DNA from: a virus
Taxonomy: Duplodnaviria > Caudoviricetes
IMG/VR virus record: IMGVR_UViG_3300006921_003544
Location: 1-62,289 of that record
Direction: 5' to 3' (one strand)
DNA: 62,289 nucleotides
Shown here piece by piece: positions 3,777 to 46,438 of this stretch. Numbering within the stretch: position 1 is the first letter of the stretch; each line of letters opens with the position of its first letter. The translations under genes and the position numbers were made by a program. The notes under the pieces are model-generated. The model saw only the letters and a list, made by a program, of their open reading frames with translations, had not been told where the DNA came from and searched no databases.

Positions 3777-3807
3777 TATACACAAACTAGACTCTAAAGG
3801 GAAGTAT

Positions 3808-11127: not shown

Positions 11128-11154
11128 AAATGCCCAAAAACTTGGGCATTTTTT
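11128..11154 (+). terminator. Rho-independent terminator after the tube gene
   Basis: Stem AAATGCCCAA, loop AAAC, stem TTGGGCATTT, then a T run. Confidence 0.8.
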
Positions 11155-11205
11155 GTATGCATACATATGTATATATAGAACAATATCAATAAAGGAGAAT
11201 AAGTT

Positions 11206-28181: not shown

Positions 28182-28952
28182 ATGGCAATTGACTTAGACG
28201 CTATTCGCAAGAAATTAAATAACTTGCAATCACAGACTACAAGAACTTCAAACTTGTGGAAGCCTGAACCAGGCAAACAACAAATCAGAATCGTACCTTA
28301 TCAACACAACAAGGATAATCCTTTCATTGAATTGTACTTTCACTACAACTTAGGACAAAAGAACTACTTGTCACCAGTAACATTTGGTAAAGCAGATCCA
28401 GTAACGGAATTTGCAGAGCAATTAAAAGCTACCGGTAATAAAGATGATTGGCAAATGGCTAGAAAGCTTGATCCAACTTTAAGAACTTATGTCCCTGTCT
28501 TAGTAAGAGGACAAGAATCAGAAGGTGTTAAGTTTTGGGGATTTGGTAAGACTGTTTATCAAGAGCTACTAAGTTTTATCGCTGATCCAGATTATGGTGA
28601 CATCACAGATTTACAAGCAGGAAGAGACATTACAGTTGAATTCTTAACAAAAGAAGAAACTGGAAAAAATTTCCCACAAACTACAATCCGTGTGAAACCT
28701 AATCAAACCGCTGCAACAGACAATAAAGATGTTGCAAATATGATAATGGATGGTCAAAAGAATATTACTGATATTTTCAAAGAAGTATCATACGATGATC
28801 TTAAACAAGCATTAGCAGAATGGTTAGAACCAGGATCAGGTGATGAGACTCCAGTAGGACAATCGGCACCAGCTTCAACGCAAACATCAACACAATCGTC
28901 GACTAAGAAAGTAGATGATGTTAACGATGCATTTGATGAATTATTTAAGTAA
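28182..28952 (+). CDS. Single-stranded DNA-binding protein (T4 gp32-like)
   Basis: LWKP...IRIVP, GVKFWGFGKTVY, GRDITV, acidic tail DDVNDAFDELF; adjacent to UvsX. Confidence 0.85.
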   Translation: MAIDLDAIRKKLNNLQSQTTRTSNLWKPEPGKQQIRIVPYQHNKDNPFIELYFHYNLGQKNYLSPVTFGKADPVTEFAEQLKATGNKDDWQMARKLDPTLRTYVPVLVRGQESEGVKFWGFGKTVYQELLSFIADPDYGDITDLQAGRDITVEFLTKEETGKNFPQTTIRVKPNQTAATDNKDVANMIMDGQKNITDIFKEVSYDDLKQALAEWLEPGSGDETPVGQSAPASTQTSTQSSTKKVDDVNDAFDELFK

Positions 28953-28962
28953 GAGGTAAGTT

Positions 28963-30093: not shown

Positions 30094-30105
30094 AGAATAA
30101 AGGTT

Positions 30106-31143
30106 ATGAAAAACAAGTATTTTTCTATATTGGATTCGTTAAAGGAAAACGAGGCTGTTAGTAGCAATATCAATGATAGGATATTAGTTATTGACGGCCT
30201 CAATACCTTCATACGATCTTGGTCAGTATCTCCAGCAACAAATGATGATGGAATTCATGTTGGTGGTATTAGTGGATTTCTAATGTCTATAGGGGCTGCA
30301 ATCAAAAAGATTAAACCTACAAGAGTTATTATATGTTTTGATGGTAAAGGTGGTAGTCAGAGAAGACGTAAACTGTTTCCTGCTTATAAAGGAAATAGAA
30401 AACCATCACAAAAACTAAACAGAGCATATCAAGCTGGTGGAGGATCATTAACCGATCAACAAGAAAACATGAAAATGCAACTTGGAAGGTTGATAAACTA
30501 TTTAGACACACTACCAGTAACGTGTATGTCTATAGAAAATATAGAAGCAGATGATGCAATGGCATACATAACACAACAAGTGCTTCCAGAATCTAGACAT
30601 TTCATTATGTCATCAGATAAAGACTTTTTACAACTAATCGACGAAAGAATAGGTGTGTGGAGTCCTACAAAAAAGAAAATGTACTTCAAAGACGATATCT
30701 TAGAAGAGTTTGGAATATCAGCTCCAAATTATTTAATGTATAGAGTTTTAAGTGGAGATAAGTCAGATAACATTCCAGGTATTCCAGGAGTAGGACTAAA
30801 ATCTTTACTTAAAAGAGTACCAGAGCTATCAGAAGAACAAAAAGTTACAATAGAAGATCTCATTAAGCTTTCAGCAGACAGTAAGATAAAAATGTTAAAT
30901 GCAATCAATGAGAACTACGACTTACTAGAATTAAATCACAAACTAATGCAACTCCACGATGTAGATATATCAGGACGAGCAAAAGAAACAATTAGAAATA
31001 TTGTACACAATCCAATTCCATCTTTGAATAAACCAAAATTCCAGTTAATGTTGGTAGAAGATAAGATGAACACAGCTATTAGAAATCATGAATTTTGGCT
31101 AAAAGAAGTTTTTATGCCATTACATGCTTTTTCATTAGTTTAG
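30106..31143 (+). CDS. 5'-3' exonuclease / RNase H (FEN family)
   Basis: IDGLN, FDG, YKGNR, EADD, SSDKDFLQL, GDKSDNIPGIPGVG. Confidence 0.9.
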   Translation: MKNKYFSILDSLKENEAVSSNINDRILVIDGLNTFIRSWSVSPATNDDGIHVGGISGFLMSIGAAIKKIKPTRVIICFDGKGGSQRRRKLFPAYKGNRKPSQKLNRAYQAGGGSLTDQQENMKMQLGRLINYLDTLPVTCMSIENIEADDAMAYITQQVLPESRHFIMSSDKDFLQLIDERIGVWSPTKKKMYFKDDILEEFGISAPNYLMYRVLSGDKSDNIPGIPGVGLKSLLKRVPELSEEQKVTIEDLIKLSADSKIKMLNAINENYDLLELNHKLMQLHDVDISGRAKETIRNIVHNPIPSLNKPKFQLMLVEDKMNTAIRNHEFWLKEVFMPLHAFSLV

Positions 31144-31172
31144 TTGCATACTACAAATATTTTTCTTATATT
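31143..31172 (+). promoter_or_regulatory. Early/middle promoter GTTGCA-N13-TTTCTTATATT
   Basis: Repeat copy ending 8 nt before the helicase ATG. Confidence 0.7.
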
Positions 31173-31180
31173 AAGAGCAT

Positions 31181-32539
31181 ATGTCAGATACATTCTTAAA
31201 ATACGGATATAGCTTTCAATCGAAATTGATAGCTTGTTTATTCAAAGATAAACCATTCTTACAACAGATTATGGATATTCTAGATCCTGAATATTTTGAA
31301 TCAGAAGCCAATAAGTGGATGATGTCCACAATCACAGATTATTATATAGAATTCAAATCACAACCAACATTAGAAGTAATGAAGGTAAAATTAGAAGATA
31401 TTGGGAATGATGTTCTTAAAACTGAGATTGTTCAACATCTTAAAGATGCAGTGCGGAACTTTGAAGCTTCAGACCTTGATTTTGTTAAGGATGAAACTAT
31501 AAAATTCTGTAAGAATCAAAAGATAAAACAAGCTATAACTCAATCAGTTGAGTTGCTGCAATTTGGAGATTATGATGGTATAAAAACCAAAATTGACGAA
31601 GCAATGAAGGCAGGAGGCGATAAAGACATTGGACATGATTACAATGTTGATATAGATGCTCGGTATGAAGAAAGTTTACGTAAGACCGTCAAGACAGGAT
31701 GGGAAGTAATAGATGATATGGCTGATGGAGGATTAGGAGCAGGTGAATTAGGAGTATTCGTAGCCCCAGCTGGTATCGGTAAATCTTGGGGATTAGTCAA
31801 TGTAGCAGCCAATGCAGTAAAAGCAGGTAAGACGGTAGTTCATTATACATTAGAATTAAATCAAGCGTATGTCGGATTAAGATTTGATTCTGTATTTACT
31901 GGTATAGCAGCGCAAAATTTGAAGTTTCATAAAGAGGATGTTGAAAAACGGGTGAATAAACTCAAAGGGCAATTGATAGTGAAATATTTTCCAACAAAGG
32001 GTGCTACTGTGAACACTATTCGTGCACATATTGATAAGTGCACCATACAAGGATTTAAGCCGGATATAGTGATAGTAGATTATGCGGATCTATTAAGAGG
32101 TAATGGTAAAGAAGTAAGACATGAACTTGGTAATATCTATGAAGACCTTAGAGGTATGGCAGGAGAATATGAAATACCAGTTTGGACAGCATCTCAAGCA
32201 AATAGATCTGCATTAGAGGAGGATGTTATTGGAGCAGAGAAAATAGCAGAATCTTATTCAAAGATTATGACAGCTGATTTTGTAATATCACTGTCAAGAA
32301 AAGTGGAAGACAAAATAGCAGGAACTGGAAGGTGGCATGTTATTAAAAATAGGTTTGGACCTGATGGAATTACGTTGCCAAGTAAAATGAATACGTCAAA
32401 CGGACAAATTCACATATACGAAGGAGCTTCAGCTCAAGGTCAAGATGCGCAAAAGCAAATGGATGGTGGACAAGAATTTCTACGTAAAAGATTAGCAAAT
32501 AAATTTATGGAATTAAAGGAGAAACCTTCGGATGAATAG
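31181..32539 (+). CDS. Replicative DnaB-like helicase (T4 gp41-like)
   Basis: APAGIGKS, YTLEL, VDYADLL, WTASQANR, KNRFG. Confidence 0.92.
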   Translation: MSDTFLKYGYSFQSKLIACLFKDKPFLQQIMDILDPEYFESEANKWMMSTITDYYIEFKSQPTLEVMKVKLEDIGNDVLKTEIVQHLKDAVRNFEASDLDFVKDETIKFCKNQKIKQAITQSVELLQFGDYDGIKTKIDEAMKAGGDKDIGHDYNVDIDARYEESLRKTVKTGWEVIDDMADGGLGAGELGVFVAPAGIGKSWGLVNVAANAVKAGKTVVHYTLELNQAYVGLRFDSVFTGIAAQNLKFHKEDVEKRVNKLKGQLIVKYFPTKGATVNTIRAHIDKCTIQGFKPDIVIVDYADLLRGNGKEVRHELGNIYEDLRGMAGEYEIPVWTASQANRSALEEDVIGAEKIAESYSKIMTADFVISLSRKVEDKIAGTGRWHVIKNRFGPDGITLPSKMNTSNGQIHIYEGASAQGQDAQKQMDGGQEFLRKRLANKFMELKEKPSDE

Positions 32540-32626
32540 AGCTATATACATATATACACATAATTATTATATACACAACGGTTATACCGAAATAATAAAA
32601 TCAAGAAAAAATAGAGGAACATTATA

Positions 32627-34486
32627 ATGGAAATTTCAAACAAAATTCTATCAGACATTACTGTCTATATGAAGTACGCAAAGTTTATCCCAGACTTAAA
32701 TAGGAGAGAGACGTGGGAAGAGTTAGTAACGCGAAACAAGCAAATGCACCAAAAGAAATATCCAGCTTTGAAGCAAGATATTGAAGATGTGTATAAATTT
32801 GTATATGATAAGAAAATACTTCCTTCAATGAGAAGTATGCAATTTGCTGGTAAACCAATTGAAATTTCTCCAAATAGAGTTTATAACTGTGCATACCTTC
32901 CAATAGATTCAATCGAATCATTTAGTGAATGTATGTTTTTACTCTTAGGTGGAACGGGTGTAGGATATTCAGTACAAAAACACCATGTTGCAACACTTCC
33001 TATGATACAAAAACCATATCCTAAAAGAAAGAAAAGATATCTGATTAGTGATAGTATTGAAGGATGGGCTGATGCAGTAAAAGTTCTTATGAAATCCTAT
33101 ATGAATGGTGGTGGTAGTAGAGTTGAATTTGATTATTCAGATATTAGACCAAAAGGAGCTAGACTTGTAACATCAGGTGGTAAAGCACCAGGACCTCAAC
33201 CACTAAAAGAGTGTTTAGTTAAGATCGATGGAATGTTGAAGGAAAAAGAATCAGGAGATCAACTATCAACGATTGAAGTCCATGACATTGTATGCCATAT
33301 TGCTGATGCAGTTTTAGCTGGTGGTATTAGAAGAGCTGCATTGATTAGTTTATTTAGTGCAGACGATGATCAGATGATTGGTTGTAAAAGTGGTAACTGG
33401 TGGGAATTGAATCCACAAAGAGGTAGAGCAAATAATTCAGCATGTTTAATGAGACATAAAATAACCAAAGACTTCTTTATGGATTTATGGAAAAGAGTTG
33501 AACTATCAGGAGCAGGTGAACCAGGAATTTATCTAAACAATGATAAAGACTGGGGAACTAATCCATGTTGTGAAATTGCATTAAGACCTTATCAATTCTG
33601 TAATTTATGTGAAGTAAATGCGAGTGATATTGACTCGCAAGAAGATTACGAAGCAAGAGTTAAAGCTGCAGCTTTTATTGGAACACTCCAAGCAGGATAT
33701 ACTAATTTTCACTATTTAAGAGAAATATGGCAAGATACTACTGAAAAGGATGCATTGATCGGAATCTCAATGACAGGTATAGGTTCAGGAACAGTTTTAG
33801 GATATGATATGAAATCAGCTGCTAAGATTGTAAAGAAAGAGAATTCAAGAGTAGCAAAGTTAATAGGAATCAAATCATCAGCAAGATGTACCACTGTAAA
33901 ACCTGCAGGTACGACTTCTTTAACATTAGGAACTTCATCAGGTATTCATGCATGGCATAACGATTATTATATTAGAAGAATTAGAGTTGGTAAGAATGAA
34001 TCAATATACAAATATTTATTTGAATTCCACCCAGAACTAGTAGAGGATGAGTATTTCAGTCCGCATGATACAGCGGTAATTCAAATTCCACAAAAAGCGC
34101 CGGAGGGTTCAATATTAAGAACTGAATCTCCGTTTCAATTATTGGAAAGAGTTAAGAAAGTTGCAACTGAATGGGTATCACCAGGACATAGGAATGGATC
34201 AAATACCCACAACGTTTCAGCAACAGTTTCTTTGAGAGATAATGAGTGGGATTATGCAGGAGAATGGATGTGGGAAAACAGAAAACATTACAATGGATTA
34301 TCAGTACTACCATATAATGGAGGCTCCTACACTCAAGCTCCATTTGAAGACATTACAGAAGAAAAATATAACGAGATGTTAAAATCGTTAACTGAGATAG
34401 ATTTATCTAGTATAGTAGAAGAAAAAGATGAAACTGATCTAAAAGGCGAATTGGCATGTGCAGGTGGTGCTTGTGAAATTGTATAA
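32627..34486 (+). CDS. nrdJ: Class II (adenosylcobalamin-dependent) ribonucleotide reductase
   Basis: PSMR, NCAY, GTGVG, GGIRRAA, NPCCEI, CNLCEV, VKPAGT, C-terminal CAGGAC; no nrdB alongside. Confidence 0.9.
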   Translation: MEISNKILSDITVYMKYAKFIPDLNRRETWEELVTRNKQMHQKKYPALKQDIEDVYKFVYDKKILPSMRSMQFAGKPIEISPNRVYNCAYLPIDSIESFSECMFLLLGGTGVGYSVQKHHVATLPMIQKPYPKRKKRYLISDSIEGWADAVKVLMKSYMNGGGSRVEFDYSDIRPKGARLVTSGGKAPGPQPLKECLVKIDGMLKEKESGDQLSTIEVHDIVCHIADAVLAGGIRRAALISLFSADDDQMIGCKSGNWWELNPQRGRANNSACLMRHKITKDFFMDLWKRVELSGAGEPGIYLNNDKDWGTNPCCEIALRPYQFCNLCEVNASDIDSQEDYEARVKAAAFIGTLQAGYTNFHYLREIWQDTTEKDALIGISMTGIGSGTVLGYDMKSAAKIVKKENSRVAKLIGIKSSARCTTVKPAGTTSLTLGTSSGIHAWHNDYYIRRIRVGKNESIYKYLFEFHPELVEDEYFSPHDTAVIQIPQKAPEGSILRTESPFQLLERVKKVATEWVSPGHRNGSNTHNVSATVSLRDNEWDYAGEWMWENRKHYNGLSVLPYNGGSYTQAPFEDITEEKYNEMLKSLTEIDLSSIVEEKDETDLKGELACAGGACEIV

Positions 34487-34548
34487 ATTGGATTGGATCC
34501 AACAGTTATATTATGAGGAAATGTTACGTAATAATACGGAGAAATCTC

Positions 34549-34743
34549 ATGATAAACATGAACGATATGACCAGACGATTGAAGGAAATCGAAAAGGAAA
34601 TAGAGGATTATCAAAACGAATGCAAACACAAAAATCAGACGATCAGGACGGTGAAAGTAGGAGAAACGAGATGGGTATGTGATAAATGCCACATAGCTTT
34701 GAAATGGCCAACACCAACTGAATTAGAAAAATGGATCAAATAA
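34549..34743 (+). CDS. Small Zn-ribbon protein
   Basis: Coiled coil followed by CKH...CDKC; GGAG RBS before ATG 34549. Confidence 0.55.
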   Translation: MINMNDMTRRLKEIEKEIEDYQNECKHKNQTIRTVKVGETRWVCDKCHIALKWPTPTELEKWIK

Positions 34744-35072
34744 AAATTATAAAAATAAAAACTAACGCTCAAAATTTACATGGGTGGATAGCTTTAAGTA
34801 TAACAGATATGCCAGTTGGCCACATCTTTATGAATGAAGATATTGGAAATAAGATTAAATTTCAAGATGCTTGGGTTCATGATGAATATAGAATGAAAGG
34901 AGTTTATACCGCTCTATTCAATACTAGATGGGAATGGGTAAAAAAGAAGTATCCAGGATGGACTGCGTATGCTTGGTGTAAAGACTCAAGTAAACCTCTA
35001 TATTCAAAGAATGGATTTGAAGAAGGTGAGATATGCACCTATATGGAAAAAAAAGTAGATAATGTTGTATAA
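34731..35072 (+). CDS. GNAT-family acetyltransferase
   Basis: WVHDEYRMKGVYTAL acetyl-CoA loop and LYSKNGF. Confidence 0.75.
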   Translation: MDQIKIIKIKTNAQNLHGWIALSITDMPVGHIFMNEDIGNKIKFQDAWVHDEYRMKGVYTALFNTRWEWVKKKYPGWTAYAWCKDSSKPLYSKNGFEEGEICTYMEKKVDNVV

Positions 35073-35093
35073 ATGAATTATATTTCTTATATT
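35064..35093 (+). promoter_or_regulatory. Early/middle promoter GTTGTA-N13-TTTCTTATATT at the head of the deazaguanine operon
   Basis: Repeat copy with the same spacing, upstream of folE. Confidence 0.7.
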
Positions 35094-35125
35094 TAAGTTA
35101 TATAAAATAAAAAAAGAAAAAGGTT

Positions 35126-35764
35126 ATGGATTTATTAAAAAAGGCAAATGGTAATCTTCCACGTACGGAAGAGGAAAAACAAAAAATGATAGAACAAGCA
35201 GCTGTACATTACGGACAGTTTCTTGAAGCACTTGGATTTGATTGGAAAGCAGATAAGCATAGCGATCGAACTCCACAAAGAGTTGCAAAAGCGTGGGTAA
35301 ATGATCTAATAATGGGATCGATATCAGAACCGCCAGTCATTACAGCGTTTCCAAATGATGAAGGTTATACTGGTTTGATATGTCAAACACGTATTCCAGT
35401 TATGAGTATGTGTGCACATCACAACTTAACATTCTCAGGAGTAGCTCATGTAGCTTATATTCCAGGAAAATCAAAAAATGATTTGGTAGTTGGTTTAAGT
35501 AAGTTGAATCGTATCGTTGACTTTTATTCAAGAAGACCTAACATTCAAGAATCACTAACAAAACAAATACATGATCACGTTGAGAAATTATGTGAAGGAC
35601 ATAGAGGGGTTGCAGTGGTTATAGAATCACAGCACAACTGTGTGAAGTGTAGAGGTATTAAACATGATTCAGTTATGAAGACTGCTCAAATGTCAGGAAG
35701 ATTTATTGAAACAGAAATGACAAGACAAGAGTTCTTTGCTTTAATTGATCAAAGTAGATACTAA
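35126..35764 (+). CDS. folE: GTP cyclohydrolase I
   Basis: [38 protein letters not shown]. Confidence 0.95.
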
Positions 35765-35766
35765 AA

Positions 35767-36543
35767 ATGGCAATGAAACGAATCACAGATTATGATAAAA
35801 TCTTACCGGTACTAGAAGTATATAGATGTGTTCAATCCGAAGGAAGTAGGTTTGGACGTCCGACAATAGCAGTTAGAACAACCGGATGTACTCACCGTTG
35901 CTACTTTGGTGAAGGAGGATGGTGTGATTCATGGTACACCTCTATACATCCAGAAAAAGGAACATTTACATTTAATGATATAGTCAAAATATATGACGAG
36001 AATCCACAAGTAAAAGAAATGATGTTAACGGGTGGATCACCAACAATGCATCCAGCGTTGGTTAATGAGTTAACACACCTTGCATATGAAAGAAATATTA
36101 TTATCACTATCGAAACTGAAGGATCTCATTATATTGAAACCGATTATCCTATCGACTTGTTGTCTCTTAGCCCTAAGTTTAGTAATTCCGTTCCTGTTGT
36201 TGGGGCTATTACTCCAGCTGGGAAAGTTATTGACGAAAGATTCATAAAGACACATAATAGATTAAGACAAAATACGGATGCAATTAAAAAGATGATAGCA
36301 TTCCATAAAGACTATCATTTCAAACCAGTTTGGGATGGAACAGAATCAAACTTGCAAGAGATAGAAGCATATAGAATTGAGTTGGATATCCCAAAAGATA
36401 AAACTTATATCATGCCTGCAGGTGATACGAGAGAAACGTTAATTGAAATGTATCCGTTAGTATTCGAAATGGTAGCAGAACATGGTTATAATATGACGGG
36501 TAGAGATCATATAGTAGCCTATGACACAGAGAGAGGAGTATAA
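35767..36543 (+). CDS. queE: 7-carboxy-7-deazaguanine synthase (radical SAM)
   Basis: QSEG..GRP..VRTTGC, CTHRCYFGEGGWCD, LTGGSP, IETEG, SLSPK; lies between folE and queD. Confidence 0.9.
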   Translation: MAMKRITDYDKILPVLEVYRCVQSEGSRFGRPTIAVRTTGCTHRCYFGEGGWCDSWYTSIHPEKGTFTFNDIVKIYDENPQVKEMMLTGGSPTMHPALVNELTHLAYERNIIITIETEGSHYIETDYPIDLLSLSPKFSNSVPVVGAITPAGKVIDERFIKTHNRLRQNTDAIKKMIAFHKDYHFKPVWDGTESNLQEIEAYRIELDIPKDKTYIMPAGDTRETLIEMYPLVFEMVAEHGYNMTGRDHIVAYDTERGV

Positions 36544-36544
36544 A

Positions 36545-37033
36545 ATGGCAAAATACCAATCAACAAAACTATTTGATAATTATTCAGTAGCATTAAGACA
36601 GCATAAGGCTGCACATTCACATTGTGAATTACTTCACGGATATGCATTAAAGTTCAAAGTATGGTTTGAATCTAATGAACCATTGGAAGAAAAGCAATTA
36701 GATGAAATGAATTGGATCATGGACTATGGTGGATTCAAAGATACAGATGCAGAACCAACTCCAGGAAATGGATTAAAAAAATGGATGAACCATATGTGGG
36801 ATCATACATGTTTAATAGAGAAAGATGATCCACAGTTAGAATCATTTAAGATGATGGAAGAGTTAGGAGTTTTATCGTTAAGAGTAATGGATAAAATGGG
36901 AGCCGAATCATGTGCTAAATTAGTCTATGATAAGTTTAATGAACGAATGGCTTTGACAGGTGGTGGTAGAGTAAAAGTGGTAAAGGTAGAGTGTTGGGAA
37001 GCTGACAGAAATTCATCAATATACACAGAGTAA
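36545..37033 (+). CDS. queD: 6-carboxy-tetrahydropterin synthase
   Basis: HCELLHGY, WIMDYG, WDH, GAE, VECWE; start at 36545 has a GAGGAG RBS. Confidence 0.88.
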   Translation: MAKYQSTKLFDNYSVALRQHKAAHSHCELLHGYALKFKVWFESNEPLEEKQLDEMNWIMDYGGFKDTDAEPTPGNGLKKWMNHMWDHTCLIEKDDPQLESFKMMEELGVLSLRVMDKMGAESCAKLVYDKFNERMALTGGGRVKVVKVECWEADRNSSIYTE

Positions 37034-37034
37034 T

Positions 37035-37574
37035 ATGAAATTAGAAAAGATATTTAGCATGGAACAAATGATAACACAAGATCAGATTCAATCAAGAGTT
37101 AAAGAATTAGCACAACAAATAGAACAACATGAGGATAAATATAATCACGACCTACCTCCAGTATTCATATGTATTTTGAATGGAGCAGTTATGTTTTTTT
37201 CAGATCTTATGAAAAATTATCATGGACTATGTGAGATGGACTTTCTTAGAGCAAAGTCGTATAATGGAAGAGATAACTCCGGAGGAGTTAAAATATTAAA
37301 GGACATAGAAGTTGCTATTCAAGGAAAAAATGTGTATATTATAGAAGATATTATTGATACTGGTGAAACAATGAAGGAGATATATTTACATCTCAGTTCA
37401 CAATTACCAAGCAGTATCAATATTGTAACATTATTAAAACGAAAGGAAGACGATCATCCAATGGACTTTTATGGGTTCGAAATCAATGACGAATGGGTAG
37501 TTGGTTATGGACTAGACGACAATGGATTGAGTAGAAATCTTCCTGCTATTTACAAATTAGAACAAGGAGAATAA
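37035..37574 (+). CDS. hpt: Hypoxanthine/guanine phosphoribosyltransferase
   Basis: ILNGAVMF, SY loop, PRPP motif IIEDIIDTGET, VVGYGLD, RNLP. Confidence 0.9.
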   Translation: MKLEKIFSMEQMITQDQIQSRVKELAQQIEQHEDKYNHDLPPVFICILNGAVMFFSDLMKNYHGLCEMDFLRAKSYNGRDNSGGVKILKDIEVAIQGKNVYIIEDIIDTGETMKEIYLHLSSQLPSSINIVTLLKRKEDDHPMDFYGFEINDEWVVGYGLDDNGLSRNLPAIYKLEQGE

Positions 37575-37576
37575 AA

Positions 37577-37726
37577 ATGGTAAATTGGATAAACGGTTTT
37601 GATGCCGGAAACAAAAAAGAAAAGTATTATTTGGAATGTAGAATCGGAACATTCACTGTGTTAGAAATAAAGTGGGAGCCGGGTAAATTTAGATTCATGG
37701 TAGTTAATTTAGGATTCGAGATATAA
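37577..37726 (+). CDS. Small hypothetical protein (49 aa, absent from the ORF track)
   Basis: Hand translation MVNWINGFDAGNKKEKYYLECRIGTFTVLEIKWEPGKFRFMVVNLGFEI; AAGGAG RBS; fills the gap exactly. Confidence 0.65.
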   Translation: MVNWINGFDAGNKKEKYYLECRIGTFTVLEIKWEPGKFRFMVVNLGFEI

Positions 37727-37727
37727 T

Positions 37728-38222
37728 ATGTTATTAAATGCAAATCAAGTAGAGCAAATGCTTATTACAAATGGTAAAGGTAAGAAAGCTCAAGTAGGTT
37801 ATGATTTAACCGTAACAGATGTAAAATCGATTAGAGGTGGAATGTTATTTGCAGATAAAACGGTTTTAGATCGTTATGATGAAGTTAAGTTAACGACTGT
37901 CGAAAAAGCACAAGGAGATGAGAGAAATGTCTGGGTATTAACTCCTGGAGTTTATAGCGTTACTTTTGAGCAAGGATGTAAATTAGACGATAAGACTACA
38001 GCTTTTATTAGACAGAGATCATCTATTCTAAGAATGGGTGGTACTGTGACTAGCGGTGTATATGATCCAGGATTTGAAGTTGATCAGATGGGAGGTGTAA
38101 TGACACTTACTAAGACTGTTGTATTAGAACACGGAGCTAGACTAGCTCAGATTATAATGTTTGAAAACAATTCTGCTGAACTATACGACGGCCAGTGGCA
38201 AAAAGATAAAGACGTTAAGTAG
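37728..38222 (+). CDS. Trimeric dUTPase / dCTP deaminase family protein
   Basis: GYDL, RSS, YDPGF, GARLAQ, YDGQWQ. Confidence 0.8.
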   Translation: MLLNANQVEQMLITNGKGKKAQVGYDLTVTDVKSIRGGMLFADKTVLDRYDEVKLTTVEKAQGDERNVWVLTPGVYSVTFEQGCKLDDKTTAFIRQRSSILRMGGTVTSGVYDPGFEVDQMGGVMTLTKTVVLEHGARLAQIIMFENNSAELYDGQWQKDKDVK

Positions 38223-38223
38223 T

Positions 38224-38571
38224 ATGAGAACAAATGTTATAGCAAAGTTAGAGATAGAAGGATTACATAATTGGCCAGATGCTCAAAAAGTATTTCCTGA
38301 AGTAGGATTCTTATCAAGTATGCATAGGCATAAATGGTTTATCACTGCTAAGAAAGAAGTGTTTCATGATGATAGAGATGTAGAGTTCATTATGTTCAAA
38401 AGAGATATCGAAGAATGGCTAGGACATCAGTATTATAATCTAAAGTCTAGGACACATGAGTTTGGAGCCAAGTCATGTGAAATGTTGGCGAAAGAAATCA
38501 TGAATGAGTTTGGTTGTTGTTATGTATCGGTATTTGAAGATAACGAAAATGGTGCAGAAGTATATGTATAG
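38224..38571 (+). CDS. dpdL: QueD-like T-fold protein, DpdL-like (candidate CDG decarboxylase)
   Basis: EGLHNW, LSSMHRHKWF (LxxxHRHx-aromatic, as I recall the DpdL signature), SCEMLA, VSVFEDNENGA; sits in a folE/queD/queE operon lacking queC. Confidence 0.6.
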   Translation: MRTNVIAKLEIEGLHNWPDAQKVFPEVGFLSSMHRHKWFITAKKEVFHDDRDVEFIMFKRDIEEWLGHQYYNLKSRTHEFGAKSCEMLAKEIMNEFGCCYVSVFEDNENGAEVYV

Positions 38572-39025
38572 AGATCATATAATATTTGTTGCAGGAACAA
38601 TTTGTAGTGGAAAAACTTATGAAGCTAGATTATTAGCAGAGGATTTAGATTATGATCTCATAGAAATCTCAGATATAGTTAGAGGAATACTAGATACAAA
38701 TAAACGAGACAAACTGCAAGGACATCCAGAACTATCTACACAAATCATTTACCAAATTGGAGAACTCAGACGGACTACGAGGAAGAAAGGGGTGGTAATA
38801 AGTGGACCGAGACAAGTAGAGATCGTATCAGCATATCCAGAAGCAGAAATGATTTGGATGAATACATCTTTAGATATGTGTTTTGAACGATTTTGTAGTA
38901 GAGGAGATTCAAAGGATACTGAATTTGATCGAAATACGTTTGAAGAATATCTACTTAAAGATGATGAATTAGGATTACAAGAAGTTAAACAATATATGGA
39001 AAAGAAAAAATATGAAAAAAACTAA
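38564..39025 (+). CDS. P-loop nucleoside monophosphate kinase-like protein
   Basis: AGTICSGKT P-loop, ISDIVR, ISGPR, ERFCSRG lid-type motif. Confidence 0.7.
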   Translation: MYRDHIIFVAGTICSGKTYEARLLAEDLDYDLIEISDIVRGILDTNKRDKLQGHPELSTQIIYQIGELRRTTRKKGVVISGPRQVEIVSAYPEAEMIWMNTSLDMCFERFCSRGDSKDTEFDRNTFEEYLLKDDELGLQEVKQYMEKKKYEKN

Positions 39026-39857
39026 ATTTGGTTATATAGCTCCGGTAGAGTATTTAGACCTTATACCGGAAGATGCTGATTTTCACTTGATATTAGCACA
39101 TTTACTAAAAGACAAACAATATGCAGCTTACTATAGAGAGAAAGCTGATAGAGGCGATACTATTATTTGTGATAATGGTGCATTTGAATTCAAAAAGAGT
39201 TTAGATCCAGAACCACTTATGAAATTGATATCTGATAGCGGTGTGAAGCCAACTTATGTGGTAGCGCCAGATTATCCATTTGAACCGTGGAGCGTAACAT
39301 ATGATTCAACGGTCAATTTTATTGAAATGGCTAAAGGTGAAGACTATGAGATAATGGCAGTGCCTCAATCAGAGACGGGAAATTATAAAGGATGGTTGGA
39401 ATGTTATAAACGATTAGCAGAACTTCCTGAAGTTAAGGTTATGGGAATGTCTATATTAGGAATTCCTAACGCATTTTGCGGATTAACTGGAACCAAAGAT
39501 ATATCAGCTAATAGAATATTTGCAACTGCTTATATGTGTAGAGAAGGATTAGTTTCTCAAAGAAAAGATCTTTCACATCATTATTTAGGATTAGGAGATG
39601 GTCCAAGAGAATTGATTACTCAAAGAGCCTTAGGTGTAATGGATACCAATGATAGCTCATCACCGTTCTGGCACGCAATCAATGGTGTATTGTTAGATGA
39701 TAGTACAACTGGATTAGTTGGAGGAAAATCGGAATTAGAAGTTGACTTCCACATAGAGAAGGCAGCAAAGAAATTTAGTATTGATAATAAGCAGATGTCG
39801 GTAGAAAAAATGATCAAGTATAATATCGAATGGATGCGTAATATATTGGAGAAGTAG
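39012..39857 (+). CDS. Divergent TGT-fold guanine transglycosylase (DpdA-like)
   Basis: TGT-type motif series ICDNGAFE, APD, AVPQ, HHYLG, DTNDSS; context is a 7-deazaguanine operon. Confidence 0.6.
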   Translation: MKKTKFGYIAPVEYLDLIPEDADFHLILAHLLKDKQYAAYYREKADRGDTIICDNGAFEFKKSLDPEPLMKLISDSGVKPTYVVAPDYPFEPWSVTYDSTVNFIEMAKGEDYEIMAVPQSETGNYKGWLECYKRLAELPEVKVMGMSILGIPNAFCGLTGTKDISANRIFATAYMCREGLVSQRKDLSHHYLGLGDGPRELITQRALGVMDTNDSSSPFWHAINGVLLDDSTTGLVGGKSELEVDFHIEKAAKKFSIDNKQMSVEKMIKYNIEWMRNILEK

Positions 39858-39858
39858 T

Positions 39859-40014
39859 ATGGAACAACCAGATGCAAAGAAACATCAACAGATTAGTTTT
39901 GTTAAATCGGGTATTAGAATATTAGGGTATATCTTTATACCATTTAATGTAGATGTTGCAGTAACACTATTAGTAGTATCAGAAGCAGTAGGAATATTAG
40001 AAGAATTAGTTTAG
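39859..40014 (+). CDS. Small hydrophobic protein (51 aa, absent from the ORF track)
   Basis: Hand translation MEQPDAKKHQQISFVKSGIRILGYIFIPFNVDVAVTLLVVSEAVGILEELV; GGAG RBS; fills the gap before polB. Confidence 0.65.
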   Translation: MEQPDAKKHQQISFVKSGIRILGYIFIPFNVDVAVTLLVVSEAVGILEELV

Positions 40015-40017
40015 GTC

Positions 40018-42531
40018 ATGTATCAAAATATTTATGTAGATTATAAAACTCGTACGGTTCATATATGGGATGATCAATTAGGTCATGTTAAGAATCCGTT
40101 AAGTAAGTATCGATATGCTTATCTCAAAGATCCGAGAGGTCAGAGAAAAGCTATCGATGGTAAGACTGTACGAGTTGTTAAACGATGGTCAGAAGAAGAC
40201 GAACGATCGGGTAAACTATATGAATATGATGTTCCAATGGAAACTAAAGCGTTGATTCACGAATATGGAGATTCGGATTTTCCTTCAACAAATCATAGAG
40301 AAGTATTTTTTGATATTGAAACTGAAATACTACAAGGATTTCCAGATTGGAGAGATCCAATTAACAAGATCACAGCAATAGCTTGGTATGAGCGTTCAAT
40401 AGATAAGTATGGTGTATTCGTATTGGATGAAAAAGACCGTGTCAAAAGTGTATCAAAGGATAATTGTGAAGTTATCATTTGTAAGACTGAAGGAGAACTC
40501 TTATATAAATTCTTAGAAAAATATATTGAATTGGATCCAACTATTCTCACAGGATGGAATATTGAGGGGTTTGATGTACCATATCTTTATAATAGAATAA
40601 AAACTGTACTCGGTGATGATTATGCAAATTCGTTAAGTCCTATAGGAAAAGTTAATTATAGAGAACATTTAGATCGTTATTATATAGAGGGAGTTTCATG
40701 TTTAGATTATCTACCATTGTATCGAAAATATACTATCGGTGAACGATCTTCGTATAGATTAGATGCAATAGGACAGACTGAAGTAGGATTGGGTAAGATT
40801 GAATATGAAGGAACATTAGATGATTTGTTTGAGAAAGATATTGATAAATATATTGAATACAACTTAAATGACGTTGAAATTGTAAAACGGTTGGACGACA
40901 AATTAAAGTTCTTAGATCTAACAAGAGCTATATGCCATAAAGGTCATGTACGATATGAATACATCCATATTACATCTAACTATCTAGAGGGAGCGATTCT
41001 CACTTATTGTAATAGATTGGGAATTGTAACTAAAAATAAACCAGAAAAAAGAAAAAGAGAAGGTAAATTCTCAGGAGCATTTGTCAAGGTTCCTAATCCT
41101 GGCAGATATGATTGGATATATGATTTAGACTTAACATCGCTATATCCATCCATCATTATGTCGCTCAACATAAGTCCAGAAACAAAAATGGGTAAAGTGG
41201 TTGATTGGGATCAAGATGCATTCAATAAAAACAAAGATAGGAATTTTACAGTACAACTCGGTAAAACAAACAAGAAAATGCATATGACCGAATATAAAAA
41301 ATTCGTAGAGGAAAAGAATTATTCAGTATCAGCAAACGGAGTTATGTTTGATAAGTCGCGACCTGGATTAGTGCCATCTATTCTGAATGCATGGTTTCAA
41401 GAAAGAGTCGAGTATAAGAATCTAAGGAAAAGATATGAATCTGAAGGAGATACAGTTAAAGCTGAATTCTACGATCAAAAGCAGTACACTCAAAAGATAC
41501 TGCTTAATTCAATGTATGGTGTATTAGGATTGGCATCTTTTAGATTCTTTGACTTAGACAATGCAGAAGCTGTAACAACAACTGGACAGACGGTTATCAA
41601 GACTACAGCAAAGATAGGTGATCAATATTATAGCAAAGAGTTAGGAAAAGAAAAAGAACATTGTATCTACACAGATACAGATTCAGTATTCTTCTCAGCT
41701 CTTCCATTAGTTAAAAAACGGTATCCAAACATTGATGTGTTTGATGATAAAGTGATGTCTGAAAAGATTCTCATCATAGCAAAAGATGTACAAGATCATA
41801 TCAATACGACTTATGATGTAATGGCAAAGAAATTGTTTAATATCAACGATCATAGATTTGACATAAAGCAAGAAACCATTGCAAAAGCAGGTATATGGAT
41901 TGCTAAGAAAAGATATGCTCAATGGATAATTAACGTTGAAGGACATCCCGTTGATAAATTAGATGTAAAAGGTATTGATGTTGTAAGATCGAATTTTCCA
42001 GCAGCTCTTAGGACCTTTATGGCGGGAGTGTTGCAAGATATTTTACAAAACAAGACAAAAGATTATATAGACAATAAAGTGTTAGACTTCAGACAAGAGA
42101 TAGAAACGCTTCCTATATTAGATGTAGCAAAACCAACTGGTGTAAAAAATATTGAAAAATATACATTAGAGTATGATGGGTCGACTCGCACAGCAACACG
42201 CAAAGGATGTCCAGCTCATGTTAAGGCTGCTATATCATATAACGATATGATTACAGCTTTGAAGCAAACCCATCTTGGAGAGATTAGAGAGAAAGAAAAG
42301 ATCAAATGGGTGTATCTCAAACCAAATCCATATGGATATGATAGTTTGGCATTGAAAGGTTATGATGATCCGATTGAAATAGTTGAGTATATAGAAAAAT
42401 ATATTGATTATAATAAACACTTTCAATCAGATTTGGAAAATAAATTATTGGCTTTTTACACTGCATTACAGTGGGGTAAATTACCAGCTAAAAATACGAA
42501 AATGATTCAAAAATTCTTCGATTTTAGTTAA
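40018..42531 (+). CDS. Family B DNA polymerase (T4 gp43-like)
   Basis: Exo motifs FDIET, GWNIEGFD, YNLND; pol motifs DLTSLYPS, KILLNSMYG, YTDTDS, KKRY. Confidence 0.97.
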   Translation: MYQNIYVDYKTRTVHIWDDQLGHVKNPLSKYRYAYLKDPRGQRKAIDGKTVRVVKRWSEEDERSGKLYEYDVPMETKALIHEYGDSDFPSTNHREVFFDIETEILQGFPDWRDPINKITAIAWYERSIDKYGVFVLDEKDRVKSVSKDNCEVIICKTEGELLYKFLEKYIELDPTILTGWNIEGFDVPYLYNRIKTVLGDDYANSLSPIGKVNYREHLDRYYIEGVSCLDYLPLYRKYTIGERSSYRLDAIGQTEVGLGKIEYEGTLDDLFEKDIDKYIEYNLNDVEIVKRLDDKLKFLDLTRAICHKGHVRYEYIHITSNYLEGAILTYCNRLGIVTKNKPEKRKREGKFSGAFVKVPNPGRYDWIYDLDLTSLYPSIIMSLNISPETKMGKVVDWDQDAFNKNKDRNFTVQLGKTNKKMHMTEYKKFVEEKNYSVSANGVMFDKSRPGLVPSILNAWFQERVEYKNLRKRYESEGDTVKAEFYDQKQYTQKILLNSMYGVLGLASFRFFDLDNAEAVTTTGQTVIKTTAKIGDQYYSKELGKEKEHCIYTDTDSVFFSALPLVKKRYPNIDVFDDKVMSEKILIIAKDVQDHINTTYDVMAKKLFNINDHRFDIKQETIAKAGIWIAKKRYAQWIINVEGHPVDKLDVKGIDVVRSNFPAALRTFMAGVLQDILQNKTKDYIDNKVLDFRQEIETLPILDVAKPTGVKNIEKYTLEYDGSTRTATRKGCPAHVKAAISYNDMITALKQTHLGEIREKEKIKWVYLKPNPYGYDSLALKGYDDPIEIVEYIEKYIDYNKHFQSDLENKLLAFYTALQWGKLPAKNTKMIQKFFDFS

Positions 42532-42568
42532 CTTAATATATACTTATATATAGAAAATAAAGGTTATT

Positions 42569-43300
42569 ATGGACAAACAAAAATTAAATGGTTTTATAGA
42601 CAAATACTCATTAGGAGGTGGTGTCGAATCTGTAAAGTGGAATGTATCTAAAGAAGCGATGCAGACAAACTTTATATCAGATGATAAAACATTACTAGGT
42701 AATGTTAAATACAAGGGCATTGGATTCACGGAAGGTGATTATTGTATATACACAACCTCACAACTCAAAAAACTTATTAGCGTACTAGATACAGATATTA
42801 ACGTGTTAGTTAATCATCAAGAAGGACGCTCCTACTCTATAGGAATGACTGATAATACTACGATGTTAGAGTATATCTTATCAGAAGAAGCCATAATTCC
42901 AAAAGCTCCAAAGCTAAAACAAATACCAGAATTCACTGCAACAATTGTAATAGATGGCAACTTTGTATCTAGGTTTATTAGATCCAAAGCTGCATTATCA
43001 GATGAGACAAACTTTACGGTAGTAGCAGATGATCTTGGAGATAAGTTGCAAGTAATCATAGGACATTCAGATTCTATGGCAACTAATAAGATTATATTTG
43101 ACGTGCAAAACGCAAACACTGAAGTACCAGATTTAGAGCATATCTCATTCTCAGCTGATCATATGAAAGAAATATTATTAGCCAATCGAGATATGACTTC
43201 TGGTTTGATGGAAGTTAGTCCGGATGGATTAGCAAAAATAACAATAGAAGGACCAGATTTCAAATCTGTATATTATTTAGTACAAACGCAAAACAATTAA
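42569..43300 (+). CDS. Sliding clamp (T4 gp45/PCNA-like)
   Basis: 243 aa directly after polB; beta-rich with a C-terminal SVYYLV; clamp loader nearby. Confidence 0.7.
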   Translation: MDKQKLNGFIDKYSLGGGVESVKWNVSKEAMQTNFISDDKTLLGNVKYKGIGFTEGDYCIYTTSQLKKLISVLDTDINVLVNHQEGRSYSIGMTDNTTMLEYILSEEAIIPKAPKLKQIPEFTATIVIDGNFVSRFIRSKAALSDETNFTVVADDLGDKLQVIIGHSDSMATNKIIFDVQNANTEVPDLEHISFSADHMKEILLANRDMTSGLMEVSPDGLAKITIEGPDFKSVYYLVQTQNN

Positions 43301-43312
43301 AGGAGAGTAGTT

Positions 43313-45266
<1,954 letters not shown>

Positions 45267-45274
45267 AGATAATT

Positions 45275-45508
45275 ATGGAAATATATGTAAACGCAATAGT
45301 AAAAAAATGTGAAGCGGATAGAGCAATAGCAGTAGCTAATCTGAACACTTATCTAAAAAGTCCAGTAGGTGTCGGAGAGCATCCGAATATCGTAGGAGAA
45401 GTAGAAAAGTTGTTAGGAGATATAGCAACGGCTGATGGAAAATTAGAAGCGTTAAAATCGCTTATTAGTTCAAATCCTCCAGCTGATAATGTTGCAGAAT
45501 CCAAATAA
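45275..45508 (+). CDS. Small hypothetical protein
   Basis: 77-aa helical ORF containing PVGVGEHP. Confidence 0.6.
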   Translation: MEIYVNAIVKKCEADRAIAVANLNTYLKSPVGVGEHPNIVGEVEKLLGDIATADGKLEALKSLISSNPPADNVAESK

Positions 45509-45520
45509 TTTTCGTATATT
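45491..45520 (+). promoter_or_regulatory. Early/middle promoter GTTGCA-N13-TTTCGTATATT; predicted +1 falls at the clamp-loader ATG
   Basis: TATATT ends at 45520, ATG is at 45527, and there is no RBS between them. Confidence 0.7.
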
Positions 45521-45526
45521 GTATAT

Positions 45527-46438
45527 ATGAATATAGAAAATACACTTTGGGTAGAGAAGTATCGACCTGATACTTTAGATGGATACATCGGATCAGAAGC
45601 TGTGGTTTCAAAGGTTCAGTCATATTTAGCAAGTGGGGATATTCCTCATTTGCTATTATATGGCAAAGCTGGAACTGGAAAAACTACATTAGGTAAGATT
45701 GTTGTTAATAATATCGACTGTGATCATATGTACATAAATGCATCTGATGAAAATAATGTTGATACAGTTAGAACTAAGATTAGAGATTTTGCAAGTTCAA
45801 TGGGATTCAATCCATTGAAAGTCATCATATTGGATGAAGCAGATTATCTAACTCCTAATGCTCAAGCAGCATTGAGAAATCTAATGGAGACGTTTTCAAA
45901 AACAACTAGATTCATTCTAACGTGTAATTATGTTGAAAAGATTATTGATCCGATCCAAAGTAGATGTCAAGTATTTGGAATAACTCCACCATCTAAAAAA
46001 GATGTTGCAATGAGATTGAAGGATATATGCACTCAAGAGAATATAGAGGAAGGCTTTGCACCAGCGATAGTGCAGATAGTTAATACAACATATCCAGATA
46101 TTCGTAGAGGTATAAACGCATTACAAAGACAGATTGTAGATGGAAAATTAGTTATAGATGAGATATCAATGCTCCAAGCTGATTGGATGAATGATTTATT
46201 AAAATCTATGCAAGCCAATGAAAGTATATCAAAAATGAGACAAATTGTTGTAGATAGTAAATCTACAGACTTCACAGATGTATATAGATTCTTATATGAT
46301 AATATGGATGAATACACAACTCAAACAGCTGAAGCTATAATGTATATAGCAGAAGCACAATATAAAGATGTTATGGTAGTTGATAAGGAAATCAACATTA
46401 TGGCATTATTAGTAAAACTAAAGGAGACGTTAAAATGA
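45527..46438 (+). CDS. Clamp loader large subunit (T4 gp44/RFC small-like AAA+)
   Basis: WVEKYRP, GKAGTGKTT, NASDE, LDEAD, QAALR, SRC. Confidence 0.95.
   Translation: MNIENTLWVEKYRPDTLDGYIGSEAVVSKVQSYLASGDIPHLLLYGKAGTGKTTLGKIVVNNIDCDHMYINASDENNVDTVRTKIRDFASSMGFNPLKVIILDEADYLTPNAQAALRNLMETFSKTTRFILTCNYVEKIIDPIQSRCQVFGITPPSKKDVAMRLKDICTQENIEEGFAPAIVQIVNTTYPDIRRGINALQRQIVDGKLVIDEISMLQADWMNDLLKSMQANESISKMRQIVVDSKSTDFTDVYRFLYDNMDEYTTQTAEAIMYIAEAQYKDVMVVDKEINIMALLVKLKETLK

Follow-up and report, generated by a model that had tools for sequence, protein, structure and literature searches.

The window analysed here is the viral record IMGVR_UViG_3300006921_003544, taken over its whole length of 62,289 bases and estimated by CheckV to be about 32% complete. 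The genes in question are those of a purine phosphoribosyltransferase (PRTase) and a small P-loop kinase, both of which lie within a block of predicted 7-deazaguanine genes at 35126-39857. All genes under discussion are on the plus strand. The block is contained in a T4-like replication set (28182-46438) comprising gp32, UvsX/RecA, FEN, DnaB, a B12-dependent reductase, PolB, GroES/GroEL and a clamp loader. It is co-directional and terminator-free, as a consensus scan found no terminators in 34400-40100, and promoter-like sites in the block were not more frequent than in shuffled sequence. The gene order is FolE, QueE, QueD, PRTase, a gene of the dUTPase/dCTP deaminase (DCD) fold, DpdL, kinase and DpdA3, followed by PolB, and the genes abut or overlap with the sole exception of a 153-nt gap 3' of the PRTase gene (Table 1). 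The initial annotation had placed a hypoxanthine phosphoribosyltransferase (HPRT) with the motif EDIIDTG directly after queD, and a P-loop kinase between a DpdL-like gene and a gene resembling tRNA-guanine transglycosylase (TGT). Both genes were found as described: the PRTase open reading frame (ORF) is separated by 1 nt from the end of QueD and its product scores above the cut-off of TIGR01203, and the kinase, with the Walker A motif GTICSGKT, is flanked by homologues of DpdL and DpdA3. The DCD-fold gene between the two had been overlooked.

Judged by its genes, the block is a phiST-type 7-deazaguanine system, with Cellulophaga phage phiST, Flavobacterium phage immuto and Chryseobacterium phage MA9V-3 as the closest named relatives. 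In phiST DNA, dG is wholly replaced by 2'-deoxy-7-deazaguanosine (dDG); the product of gp040 was named DpdL and proposed to be a decarboxylase of 7-carboxy-7-deazaguanine (CDG), and that of gp042 (CGPG_00065) was named DpdA3, a distant TGT/DpdA homologue (Cui et al., 2023, PMC10516641). Table 1 and the Discussion of the same article report phiST, immuto and CP220 as the fully modified lineages. Its conclusion is that all phage 7-deazaguanine modifications are post-replicative, DpdA3 inserting the base into DNA; according to its Discussion, the authors' tests of DpdA3 in E. coli failed, and the DNA exchange activity remains proposed. A modified-dGTP route was mentioned earlier for Campylobacter phages (Hutinet et al., 2019, PMC6884629). 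The phiST gene set consists of QueE-QueD-FolE, a MazG-like gene, gp040, gp041, gp042 and a polymerase. FolE, QueD, QueE, DpdL and DpdA3 are present in both systems, and in both an overlapping DpdL-kinase-DpdA3 array of identical order is followed by a DNA polymerase gene, with a nucleoside triphosphate (NTP) pyrophosphatase gene directly upstream of DpdL. Both also encode a purine PRTase (gp064 in phiST). The differences are that the PRTase of phiST is Gpt-like and lies about 17 kb from the cluster, whereas that of the window is Hpt-type and within the operon; that the pyrophosphatase is MazG in phiST and of the dUTPase/DCD fold in the window; that the polymerases are DnaE and PolB, respectively; and that identities are low, 29% for the kinase and 26% for DpdA3 (tblastn of window DpdA3 against gp042, E 4e-11). 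The DpdL motif of the window, FLSSMHRHKW, agrees with the pattern LxxxHRHx (versus CxxxHGH in QueD), L-SSM-HRH-K-W standing against L-SLN-HRH-L-F in phiST, with W at the position of the phiST F. Window DpdA3, phiST gp042 and immuto gp206 formed a single jackhmmer family. The structure model of window DpdA3 (pLDDT 81, pTM 0.82) gave 50 listed Foldseek matches, all of them tRNA-guanine transglycosylases, with E about 1e-7 and TM(query) of 0.5-0.62; the profile match to the DNA-guanine transglycosylase 7ui4 was weak (E 0.026).

The PRTase is a protein of 179 aa with EDIIDTG at residues 104-110, within VYIIEDIIDTG (100-110). It matched Pfam Pribosyltran with E 2.9e-22 and the NCBIfam HGPRTase equivalog model TIGR01203 with 162.6 bits, i.e., above the cut-off of 150, while the relative in locus L013 scored below it with 123.5 bits. 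Among solved structures, its closest relative is the HGXPRT 4qri (E 7e-38), and the alignment with solved HPRTs runs end to end. D105, D108 and G110 are invariant in the 12 aligned viral relatives and common to the 16 cluster-associated sequences, and D108, which we take to be the catalytic Asp facing purine N7, is retained in 117 of the 119 close metagenomic homologues. The PRTase shares with bacterial Hpt proteins (TIGR01203) the phosphoribosyl pyrophosphate (PRPP) motif, an Asp at D108, the KSY of the flexible loop and a D...R motif at the C-terminus. Unlike them, the PRTase has Arg (R136) for the Lys of TLLxK, followed by a deletion of 3-5 residues, and Trp (W154) for the Phe before VGYG, two columns which presumably contact the purine by O6 contact and base stacking, as D108 presumably does by N7 proton transfer. 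This R/W combination was found in 16/16 cluster-associated sequences and 119/119 close homologues. The Lys and the Phe are typical of the HGPRTase family but do not define it. Identity to cellular Hpt does not exceed about 45%, and the phage sequences form a separate clade. In a quick IQ-TREE phylogeny of 89 distinct sequences (four identical rows merged), 14 viral rows and five rows from Flavobacteriales metagenome-assembled genomes (MAGs) made up this clade with an SH-aLRT of 100, the five MAG rows being nested among the phages as sister to L010 (support 96). We regard the PRTase as a member of a divergent Hpt subclade inside the HGPRTase family, with predicted guanine/hypoxanthine catalysis. 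Relative to the closest relative, L008, its ratio of nonsynonymous to synonymous substitution rates (dN/dS) was 0.115, an approximate value as dS is near saturation, and that of the kinase was 0.064; both genes are under purifying selection in this comparison.

The R/W type was also the only strong HPRT-family match in the five Flavobacteriales MAGs (115.6-117.1 bits, the next at most 47.5 bits), and in L023 it is surrounded by ordinary cellular genes. It appears able to serve as a cell's only HPRT, which is compatible with housekeeping salvage, and the signature was rejected as a proof of deazapurine specificity, as its presence in the sole HPRT-family gene of these MAGs weakens such use. The contigs L022-L026, from Flavobacteriales / Crocinitomicaceae MAGs, are carriers of the phage-type R/W HPRT and may represent phage-to-cell replacement of a housekeeping hpt.

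Co-occurrence of the PRTase with deazaguanine genes was followed in three sets. The Hpt-type set from IMG/VR comprised 13 distinct loci, 43-85% identical and found by query-derived peptide patterns, hence a related sample; in all 13 viral loci the PRTase gene followed QueE at a distance of no more than about 1 kb and had QueD and/or FolE as a neighbour. Among the best 80 cellular loci of a species-genome collection, two (L030, L049) were the same phage-type cluster binned into MAGs and 78 were without the cluster. The third set was centred on DpdA3 and consisted of the best 80 of at least 180 loci, with our own ORF calls classified by jackhmmer. It contained genes for DCD-like proteins in 73 loci, DpdL in 67, FolE in 45, QueD in 41, QueE in 35, PRTase in 31, AAA_18 kinase in four and kinase of the T4-type deoxynucleoside monophosphate kinase (DNMK) family in seven. 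Where QueE was visible, a PRTase of either Hpt or Gpt type was present in 27/35 loci. The majority of the PRTases in this set, short proteins of 142-161 aa, belong to the Gpt/XGPRT (xanthine-guanine PRTase) kind, as does immuto gp211 (NF006613, 59.7 bits). Locus L109 has the gene order of the window with a Gpt-like PRTase in the Hpt slot; the Gpt-like protein of L119 has 1vdm as its best PDB match (2e-18) and matches E. coli XGPRT with 4e-7. Judged by sequence, this is a case of non-orthologous displacement, the slot that is occupied by an Hpt-type PRTase in the window being taken by a Gpt/XGPRT-like one in immuto, in L109 and in most of the other loci.

A tblastn search with the Gpt-like PRTase matched 22 of 50,697 phage records. 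Fifteen of these are immuto (4), the phiST group (5) and the Campylobacter phages CP220/CPt10/CP20/CC_R7 (6), and all three lineages with a measured 100% replacement of G, i.e., phiST, immuto and CP220, thus have a purine PRTase. In CP220 it lies two genes upstream of a radical-SAM gene, in BUCT-ZZ01 between QueE and QueD, and in Brevundimonas phage MaInes next to FolE and a deoxynucleoside monophosphate (dNMP) kinase gene. With the latter two, at least 17 of the 22 records are deazaguanine phages; the remainder are two PA5oct records, a second Brevundimonas record and two others. The Hpt-type query found no match among the known deazaguanine phages, and phiST is accordingly without the Hpt type and with the Gpt-like one. 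DpdA3 and PRTase occur together in both near-complete PRTase-positive genomes, G008 (92%) and G009 (100%). The idea that the PRTase replaces DpdA3 was rejected: only one of five fragmentary PRTase-positive records shows DpdA3, but these are 11-34% complete, and both near-complete genomes have it. The PRTase is kept regardless of the end product, being present in DpdL-type loci and in the QueC-type locus L013. In the latter, which belongs to G008, QueC adjoins DpdA3 (2578-4006), which suggests an end product other than dDG; these two genes are accompanied by a 2H-phosphoesterase/Acb1-like gene (weak match, 25 bits). In an Alistipes MAG (L091, 6001-7055) a canonical cellular hpt of the K/F type stands directly before a radical-SAM gene that has 27% identity to the QueE of the window, a pair which probably belongs to ordinary queuosine biosynthesis.

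Several loci have features of their own. In MA9V-3 (L003, 7165-8046) a 293-aa protein carries the DpdL homologue in its C-terminal part and has an extra N-terminal region that matches no known family. The DpdL of L009 has a cytidylyltransferase-like gene before it and, in place of kinase and DpdA3, a weakly glycosyltransferase-like gene after it (10017-10448 and 10748-11800); no DpdA3 was found in this 71.6-kb fragment, and L011 has the same core gene order. The window-like relative L110 carries a FolE2-type GTP cyclohydrolase gene (PF02649, 230 bits) directly 3' of DpdA3 (8838-9836), and neither FolE nor PRTase was detected within its 13 kb. Bacillus phage BSTP10 (L106, 4339-7695) encodes a DpdA3-like protein of 262 aa with a weak DUF6610 match, annotated as 'polynucleotide kinase'; a thymidylate-kinase-like gene overlaps it upstream, the gene of DNA polymerase I (PolA) lies downstream, and the cluster also has Gat-QueC, QueD and FolE.

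In the kinase, G16, G21, K22 and T23 of the Walker A motif are invariant in the five aligned relatives. The protein matched Pfam AAA_18 with 33.1 bits (cut-off 29.4) and belongs to the family of phiST gp041/CGPG_00066, as indicated by phrog_19196 (8.5e-10) and tblastn (29% over 87% of the query, E 5e-8). From its likely start, the gene overlaps the end of DpdL by 23 nt and the start of DpdA3 by 14 nt. The family is rare, being found in 6 of 50,697 phage records (MA9V-3 and five of the phiST group), all of them DpdA3 phages, and in the IMG/VR loci L008, L017-L019 and L107-L110. In section 16 of PMC10516641, CGPG_00066 was set aside on the ground that other phages 'do not encode' homologues; this is contradicted by the window, the eight IMG/VR loci just named and MA9V-3, which carry them. 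The kinase gene is directly 3' of DpdL in 7/7 loci of the first set and 4/4 of the second, and in L008, phiST and MA9V-3 it lies between DpdL and DpdA3, as it does in the window. It was absent from G008, which is 92% complete and has PRTase, DpdA3 and QueC but no DpdL, and present in MA9V-3, whose whole record is without PRTase. The kinase is hence not the partner of the PRTase; the two distributions are independent, and the kinase tracks DpdL. Other kinases adjoin DpdA3 elsewhere: the T4-type DNMK, which scores 36 bits in D479 and 64 bits in Ahp1 and has a weak match in Bakedbeans, a thymidylate-kinase-like protein in BSTP10 and AAA_28 in immuto. No guanylate kinase (PF00625), PRPP synthetase or DNMK was found in the window, G008 or G009. 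The structure model (pLDDT 75) had the UMP-CMP kinase 7e9v (E 3.3e-6) and the adenylate kinase 3adk as top Foldseek matches. We attempted to read the substrate from the fold and rejected the attempt, as Foldseek and VIA-align together do not separate nucleoside monophosphate (NMP) kinases from shikimate or dephospho-CoA kinases. The protein is a P-loop small-molecule kinase that may be NMP-kinase-like, and we do not file it as an NMP kinase.

A DUF3310 protein of 80-120 aa (PF11753, 29.1 bits) is encoded between DpdA3 and the DCD-like gene in 65/80 viral DpdA3 loci, e.g., L112 (8824-9156), and in Rhizobium phage RHph_I1_18 (L004, 6998-8266) it is fused to the C-terminus of DpdA3. With 464 records, the family is common also in cyanophages, and the protein has weak matches to PHROGs that bear the label 'nucleotide kinase'. 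As a candidate for the missing kinase it was rejected, since the match to T7 gp1.7 was weak (hhalign probability 43%, E 2.5e-4) and limited to the C-terminal 64 residues of that protein.

The DCD-like gene was the most frequent partner of DpdA3 in the scan. Of the seven loci without it, six end less than 720 bp past DpdA3 and the other is truncated on its upstream side; in phiST, immuto and L013 its place is taken by a MazG/PRA-PH-type enzyme. D479 (L006) and Ahp1 (L005) encode a canonical dUTPase elsewhere (63.5 and 85.2 bits, respectively), and besides it a second, weak DCD-like copy (20.9 and 22 bits) in a triplet of DpdA3-like, T4-type dNMP kinase and DCD-like genes, which suggests that the DCD-like gene encodes something other than a plain dUTPase. 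In G009, there is no dUTPase-family match besides the DCD-like gene. The dCTP deaminases have a catalytic Glu in the motif TLE, and the window protein reads TLT at this position; it is expected to be a hydrolase and not a deaminase.

Table 1. Genes of the deazaguanine block and adjoining context genes in the 62,289-base window
Gene product	Position	Strand	Evidence
B12-dependent ribonucleotide reductase (RNR), nearest the NTP-reducing ribonucleoside-triphosphate reductase (RTPR) type (context gene)	32627..34486	+	TIGR02505 RTPR 267.7 bits, under cut-off 340; Pfam RNR barrel and RNR-II insertion domain
FolE, GTP cyclohydrolase I	35126..35764	+	Pfam PF01227 6.9e-46; phrog_2197 1.2e-57
QueE	35767..36543	+	phrog_2076 QueE-like 1.6e-47; 61-66% identity to phiST and immuto QueE
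QueD, 6-carboxy-tetrahydropterin (CPH4) synthase	36521..37033	+	Pfam PTPS 4.8e-11; phrog_2389 2e-31
Hpt-type purine PRTase, phage-associated R136/W154 subclade	37035..37574	+	TIGR01203, PDB 4qri, residue signature, tree, dN/dS
dUTPase/DCD-fold NTP pyrophosphatase-like protein	37728..38222	+	Pfam DCD 1.1e-13, dUTPase 1e-5; NF002598 dUTPase 77.4 bits, under cut-off 130; PDB 9w59 E 2.3e-6
DpdL, QueD paralogue	38224..38571	+	40% identity to phiST gp040, E 7e-19; phrog_17812 2.4e-24; HRH motif
Small P-loop kinase, phiST gp041 (CGPG_00066) homologue	38549..39025, ORF open from 38504	+	Pfam AAA_18; phrog_19196; tblastn to phiST
DpdA3, TGT-fold transglycosylase	39012..39857	+	phrog_20335 4.2e-13; jackhmmer family; structure model
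51-codon ORF	39859..40014	+	ORF list
Family B DNA polymerase PolB (context gene), directly 3' of block	40018..42531	+	Pfam DNA_pol_B 4.3e-44; exonuclease domain 1.4e-21

Starting from the observed gene identities, selection, synteny and co-occurrence, we infer all substrates as follows, and hold the result with moderate confidence: the PRTase recycles guanine expelled by DpdA3 to GTP for FolE, and the kinase and the pyrophosphatase handle the nucleotide of the deaza branch. FolE, QueD and QueE would convert GTP to CDG, DpdL is predicted to decarboxylate CDG to 7-deazaguanine, and DpdA3 would exchange guanine for 7-deazaguanine. Each exchange would expel one guanine and consume one 7-deazaguanine, i.e., one GTP. 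Guanine exchange by TGT enzymes is reversible. With PRPP, the PRTase would most likely return the expelled guanine to GMP and further to GTP, which could enter FolE again; this would rid the transglycosylase of the base competing with 7-deazaguanine, and would save a second guanine nucleotide per modified position. The kinase, probably coupled in translation to DpdL and DpdA3, would together with the pyrophosphatase handle the branch nucleotide, for which 7-deaza-dGMP is our best guess and GMP the alternative.

Guanine recycling fits the PRTase best, since the protein scores as a canonical HPRT, keeps D108, is interchangeable with Gpt and is accompanied by DpdA3. The common property of the Hpt and Gpt families is the use of guanine-like 6-oxopurines, which we counted in favour of recycling, and recycling would explain both why two unrelated guanine-type PRTase families were recruited to the same slot and why PRTases mark the fully substituted phages. 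That a guanine-releasing step is present is suggested by the coexistence of DpdA3 with the PRTase in G008 and G009. The initial annotation had offered, as its first model, that HPRT and kinase together recycle guanine released by transglycosylation, and had suggested looking for co-occurrence of hpt with dpdA-like genes. For the PRTase this co-occurrence proved strong, and the recycling half of the model is favoured; the pairing of HPRT with the kinase is not supported, given their independent distributions.

A number of observations weigh against recycling as the role of the PRTase, or against the role given to the kinase. The 72 other cellular homologues have K and F at the R136/W154 columns (segments read by eye), and a shift of specificity through these two residues is possible. 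PRTase was missing from 8/35 QueE-visible DpdA3 loci, and no PF00156 match was found in the whole records of the DpdA3-like phages D479, Ahp1, RHph_I1_18, Bakedbeans and MA9V-3, so the PRTase is dispensable for some systems. The counts are not independent events, since many of the loci are short fragments and there is some relatedness among the viral ones, and the co-occurrence as such is equally predicted by guanine recycling and by ribosylation of a deaza-base. As for the kinase, its best NMP-kinase model, TIGR02173 for (d)CMP kinase, gave 21.5 bits against a cut-off of 102.1. VIA-align placed shikimate kinases (Z 10.5, rmsd 3.7, 146 aligned) and adenylate kinases (Z 9.8, rmsd 3.6-4.0, 143-146 aligned) in a tie. 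A recognisable kinase was present in only 11/80 DpdA3 loci, the remaining 69 showing none in the sequence available.

The alternative that survives best, which we consider possible but doubtful, is that DpdA3 acts on dGMP in the nucleotide pool and not on DNA, so that the complete replacement would be pre-replicative. The dUTPase-fold or MazG enzyme would turn dGTP into dGMP, DpdA3 would swap the base of dGMP for 7-deazaguanine, and a dedicated kinase, which according to the phage would be of the AAA_18, DNMK, AAA_28 or thymidylate-kinase-like kind, would start the route to 7-deaza-dGTP, to be used by the adjacent polymerase. Here too, the expelled guanine would be returned to GTP for FolE by the purine PRTase. 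We give this weight because a pyrophosphatase, a base-changing enzyme and a kinase beside a polymerase is the pattern of T4, in which pre-replicative replacement depends on the dCTPase gp56, the dCMP hydroxymethylase gp42 and the dNMP kinase gp1. As in T4, genes for an NTP pyrophosphatase-like protein, a base-changing enzyme and a nucleotide kinase stand side by side in DpdA3 loci, and the kinases of D479 and Ahp1 belong to the T4 gp1 (DNMK) family. In contrast to T4, the base-changing enzyme of the DpdA3 loci has the TGT fold, and most of these loci are without a recognisable kinase. To our knowledge, the TGT-fold family is so far known to act only on polynucleotides. The second model of the initial annotation, in which the PRTase ribosylates the deaza-base and kinase, NrdJ and PolB make and incorporate a deaza-dGTP, is in part retained here: a pre-replicative route is possible, but by way of DpdA3, pyrophosphatase and kinase rather than HPRT, NrdJ and PolB.

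That second model in its own form, resembling the TubE pathway, we think rather improbable. The PRTase would join CDG or another 7-deazaguanine base to PRPP, DpdL might decarboxylate the nucleotide, and the kinase, a host NDP kinase and the RTPR-like reductase would lead to 7-deaza-dGTP for incorporation by PolB, with the DCD-like enzyme destroying dGTP and DpdA3 in a secondary or different role. Complete base replacement is typical of pre-replicative pathways, which was counted for such a route, as were the location of the PRTase among the CDG-making genes, the presence of RTPR-like reductase, kinase and PolB in the same block, the fact that CDG is common to DpdL-type and QueC-type clusters, and the invariant R/W at the two columns discussed above. 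There is also a precedent, and one that adds to the points against recycling: TubE, a purine PRTase homologue, has been shown to use CDG and PRPP, not 7-deazaguanine, with decarboxylation after ribosylation (PMC6112128). In the tubercidin and toyocamycin clusters (TubE/ToyH) as described there, a purine-type PRTase gene stands beside those of GTP cyclohydrolase I, CPH4 synthase and CDG synthase, which resembles the window; the difference is that the TubE cluster as described has no transglycosylase and that a UbiD enzyme decarboxylates the nucleotide. In a search for PRTase-bearing deazapurine clusters with the QueE of the window, the 401 genomes in the class of G006 gave G006 as the only match. 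The route leaves without a role the DpdA3 that is present in every near-complete PRTase-positive genome; it needs a shift of specificity in two different guanine PRTase families, and the five DpdA3-like phages named above manage without any PRTase. Moreover, D108 is invariant in the aligned viral relatives, and the R/W type serves as the only HPRT-family gene in five cellular MAGs. The initial annotation had disfavoured ribosylation on account of the N7 chemistry of HPRT; the retained D108 fits recycling, but as an exclusion of ribosylation the argument is weakened by TubE (PMC6112128).

Less probable still is the first model taken in full, with the kinase as a guanylate kinase that partners the PRTase from guanine through GMP and GDP to GTP, and DpdA3 acting on DNA after replication. 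The lack of a PF00625 gene in the window and its two near-complete relatives leaves a gap that a phage GMP kinase would fill, the kinase fold is nucleotide-kinase-like, and post-replicative insertion by DpdA3 is the published view (PMC10516641). But the kinase is missing from G008 with its PRTase and DpdA3, is present in MA9V-3, which has no PRTase, and follows the distribution of DpdL, not that of the PRTase; the near-universal DCD-like partner would have no role. Where another kinase replaces it beside DpdA3, this is of the T4 deoxynucleotide type, which acts on dNMPs and not on GMP. Finally, it seems highly unlikely that the PRTase is a general salvage auxiliary, the kinase a general dNMP/dTMP kinase and the DCD-like protein an ordinary dUTPase, grouped with replication genes by phage habit: although the block lies inside a replication/nucleotide module (gp32, UvsX, FEN, DnaB, RNR, PolB, clamp loader), G009 has no other dUTPase-family match and the phiST PRTase lies near RNR away from the cluster, the kinase family is confined to DpdA3 phages and the Gpt-like PRTase largely to deazaguanine phages in the searches above, D479 and Ahp1 keep a canonical dUTPase besides the DCD-like gene at DpdA3, and the latter gene is missed only at cut or short flanks.

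The complete replacement of guanine in phiST, immuto and CP220 is an unsolved problem, in which the proposed DpdL and DpdA3 have not yet been reconstituted. In the window and about 100 related loci, the known genes are accompanied by a purine PRTase, a dUTPase-fold or MazG pyrophosphatase and often a nucleotide kinase, and these three kinds of enzyme make a short list of proteins for reconstitution. The words 'phosphoribosyl' and 'kinase' do not occur in the main texts of PMC10516641 and PMC6884629, although the supplementary tables of the 2023 article may list such genes. Our literature search, the scope of which ended at subscription papers such as the original Campylobacter phage study, found no paper linking a PRTase or a kinase to phage deazaguanine DNA. 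The findings provide a reason, based on stoichiometry, for the recycling of guanine, and offer a concrete alternative to insertion after replication that can be tested. Should DpdA3 act on dGMP, it would be the first TGT-family enzyme to act on a mononucleotide; this would overturn the published post-replicative conclusion for all phage 7-deazaguanine modifications and could explain why DpdL and DpdA3 alone yielded no dDG in E. coli. Since 7-deaza-dGTP is widely used in sequencing and PCR, enzymes able to make or select it would be useful tools.

Two further features of the window lie outside the block. Between the reductase and FolE (34731-35072) there is a small GNAT acetyltransferase-like gene (Pfam Acetyltransf_7, 26.4 bits, cut-off 27). 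The phage GroES/GroEL pair is located 3' of PolB (43313-45266), and is kept in L010, L014-L016 and L020.

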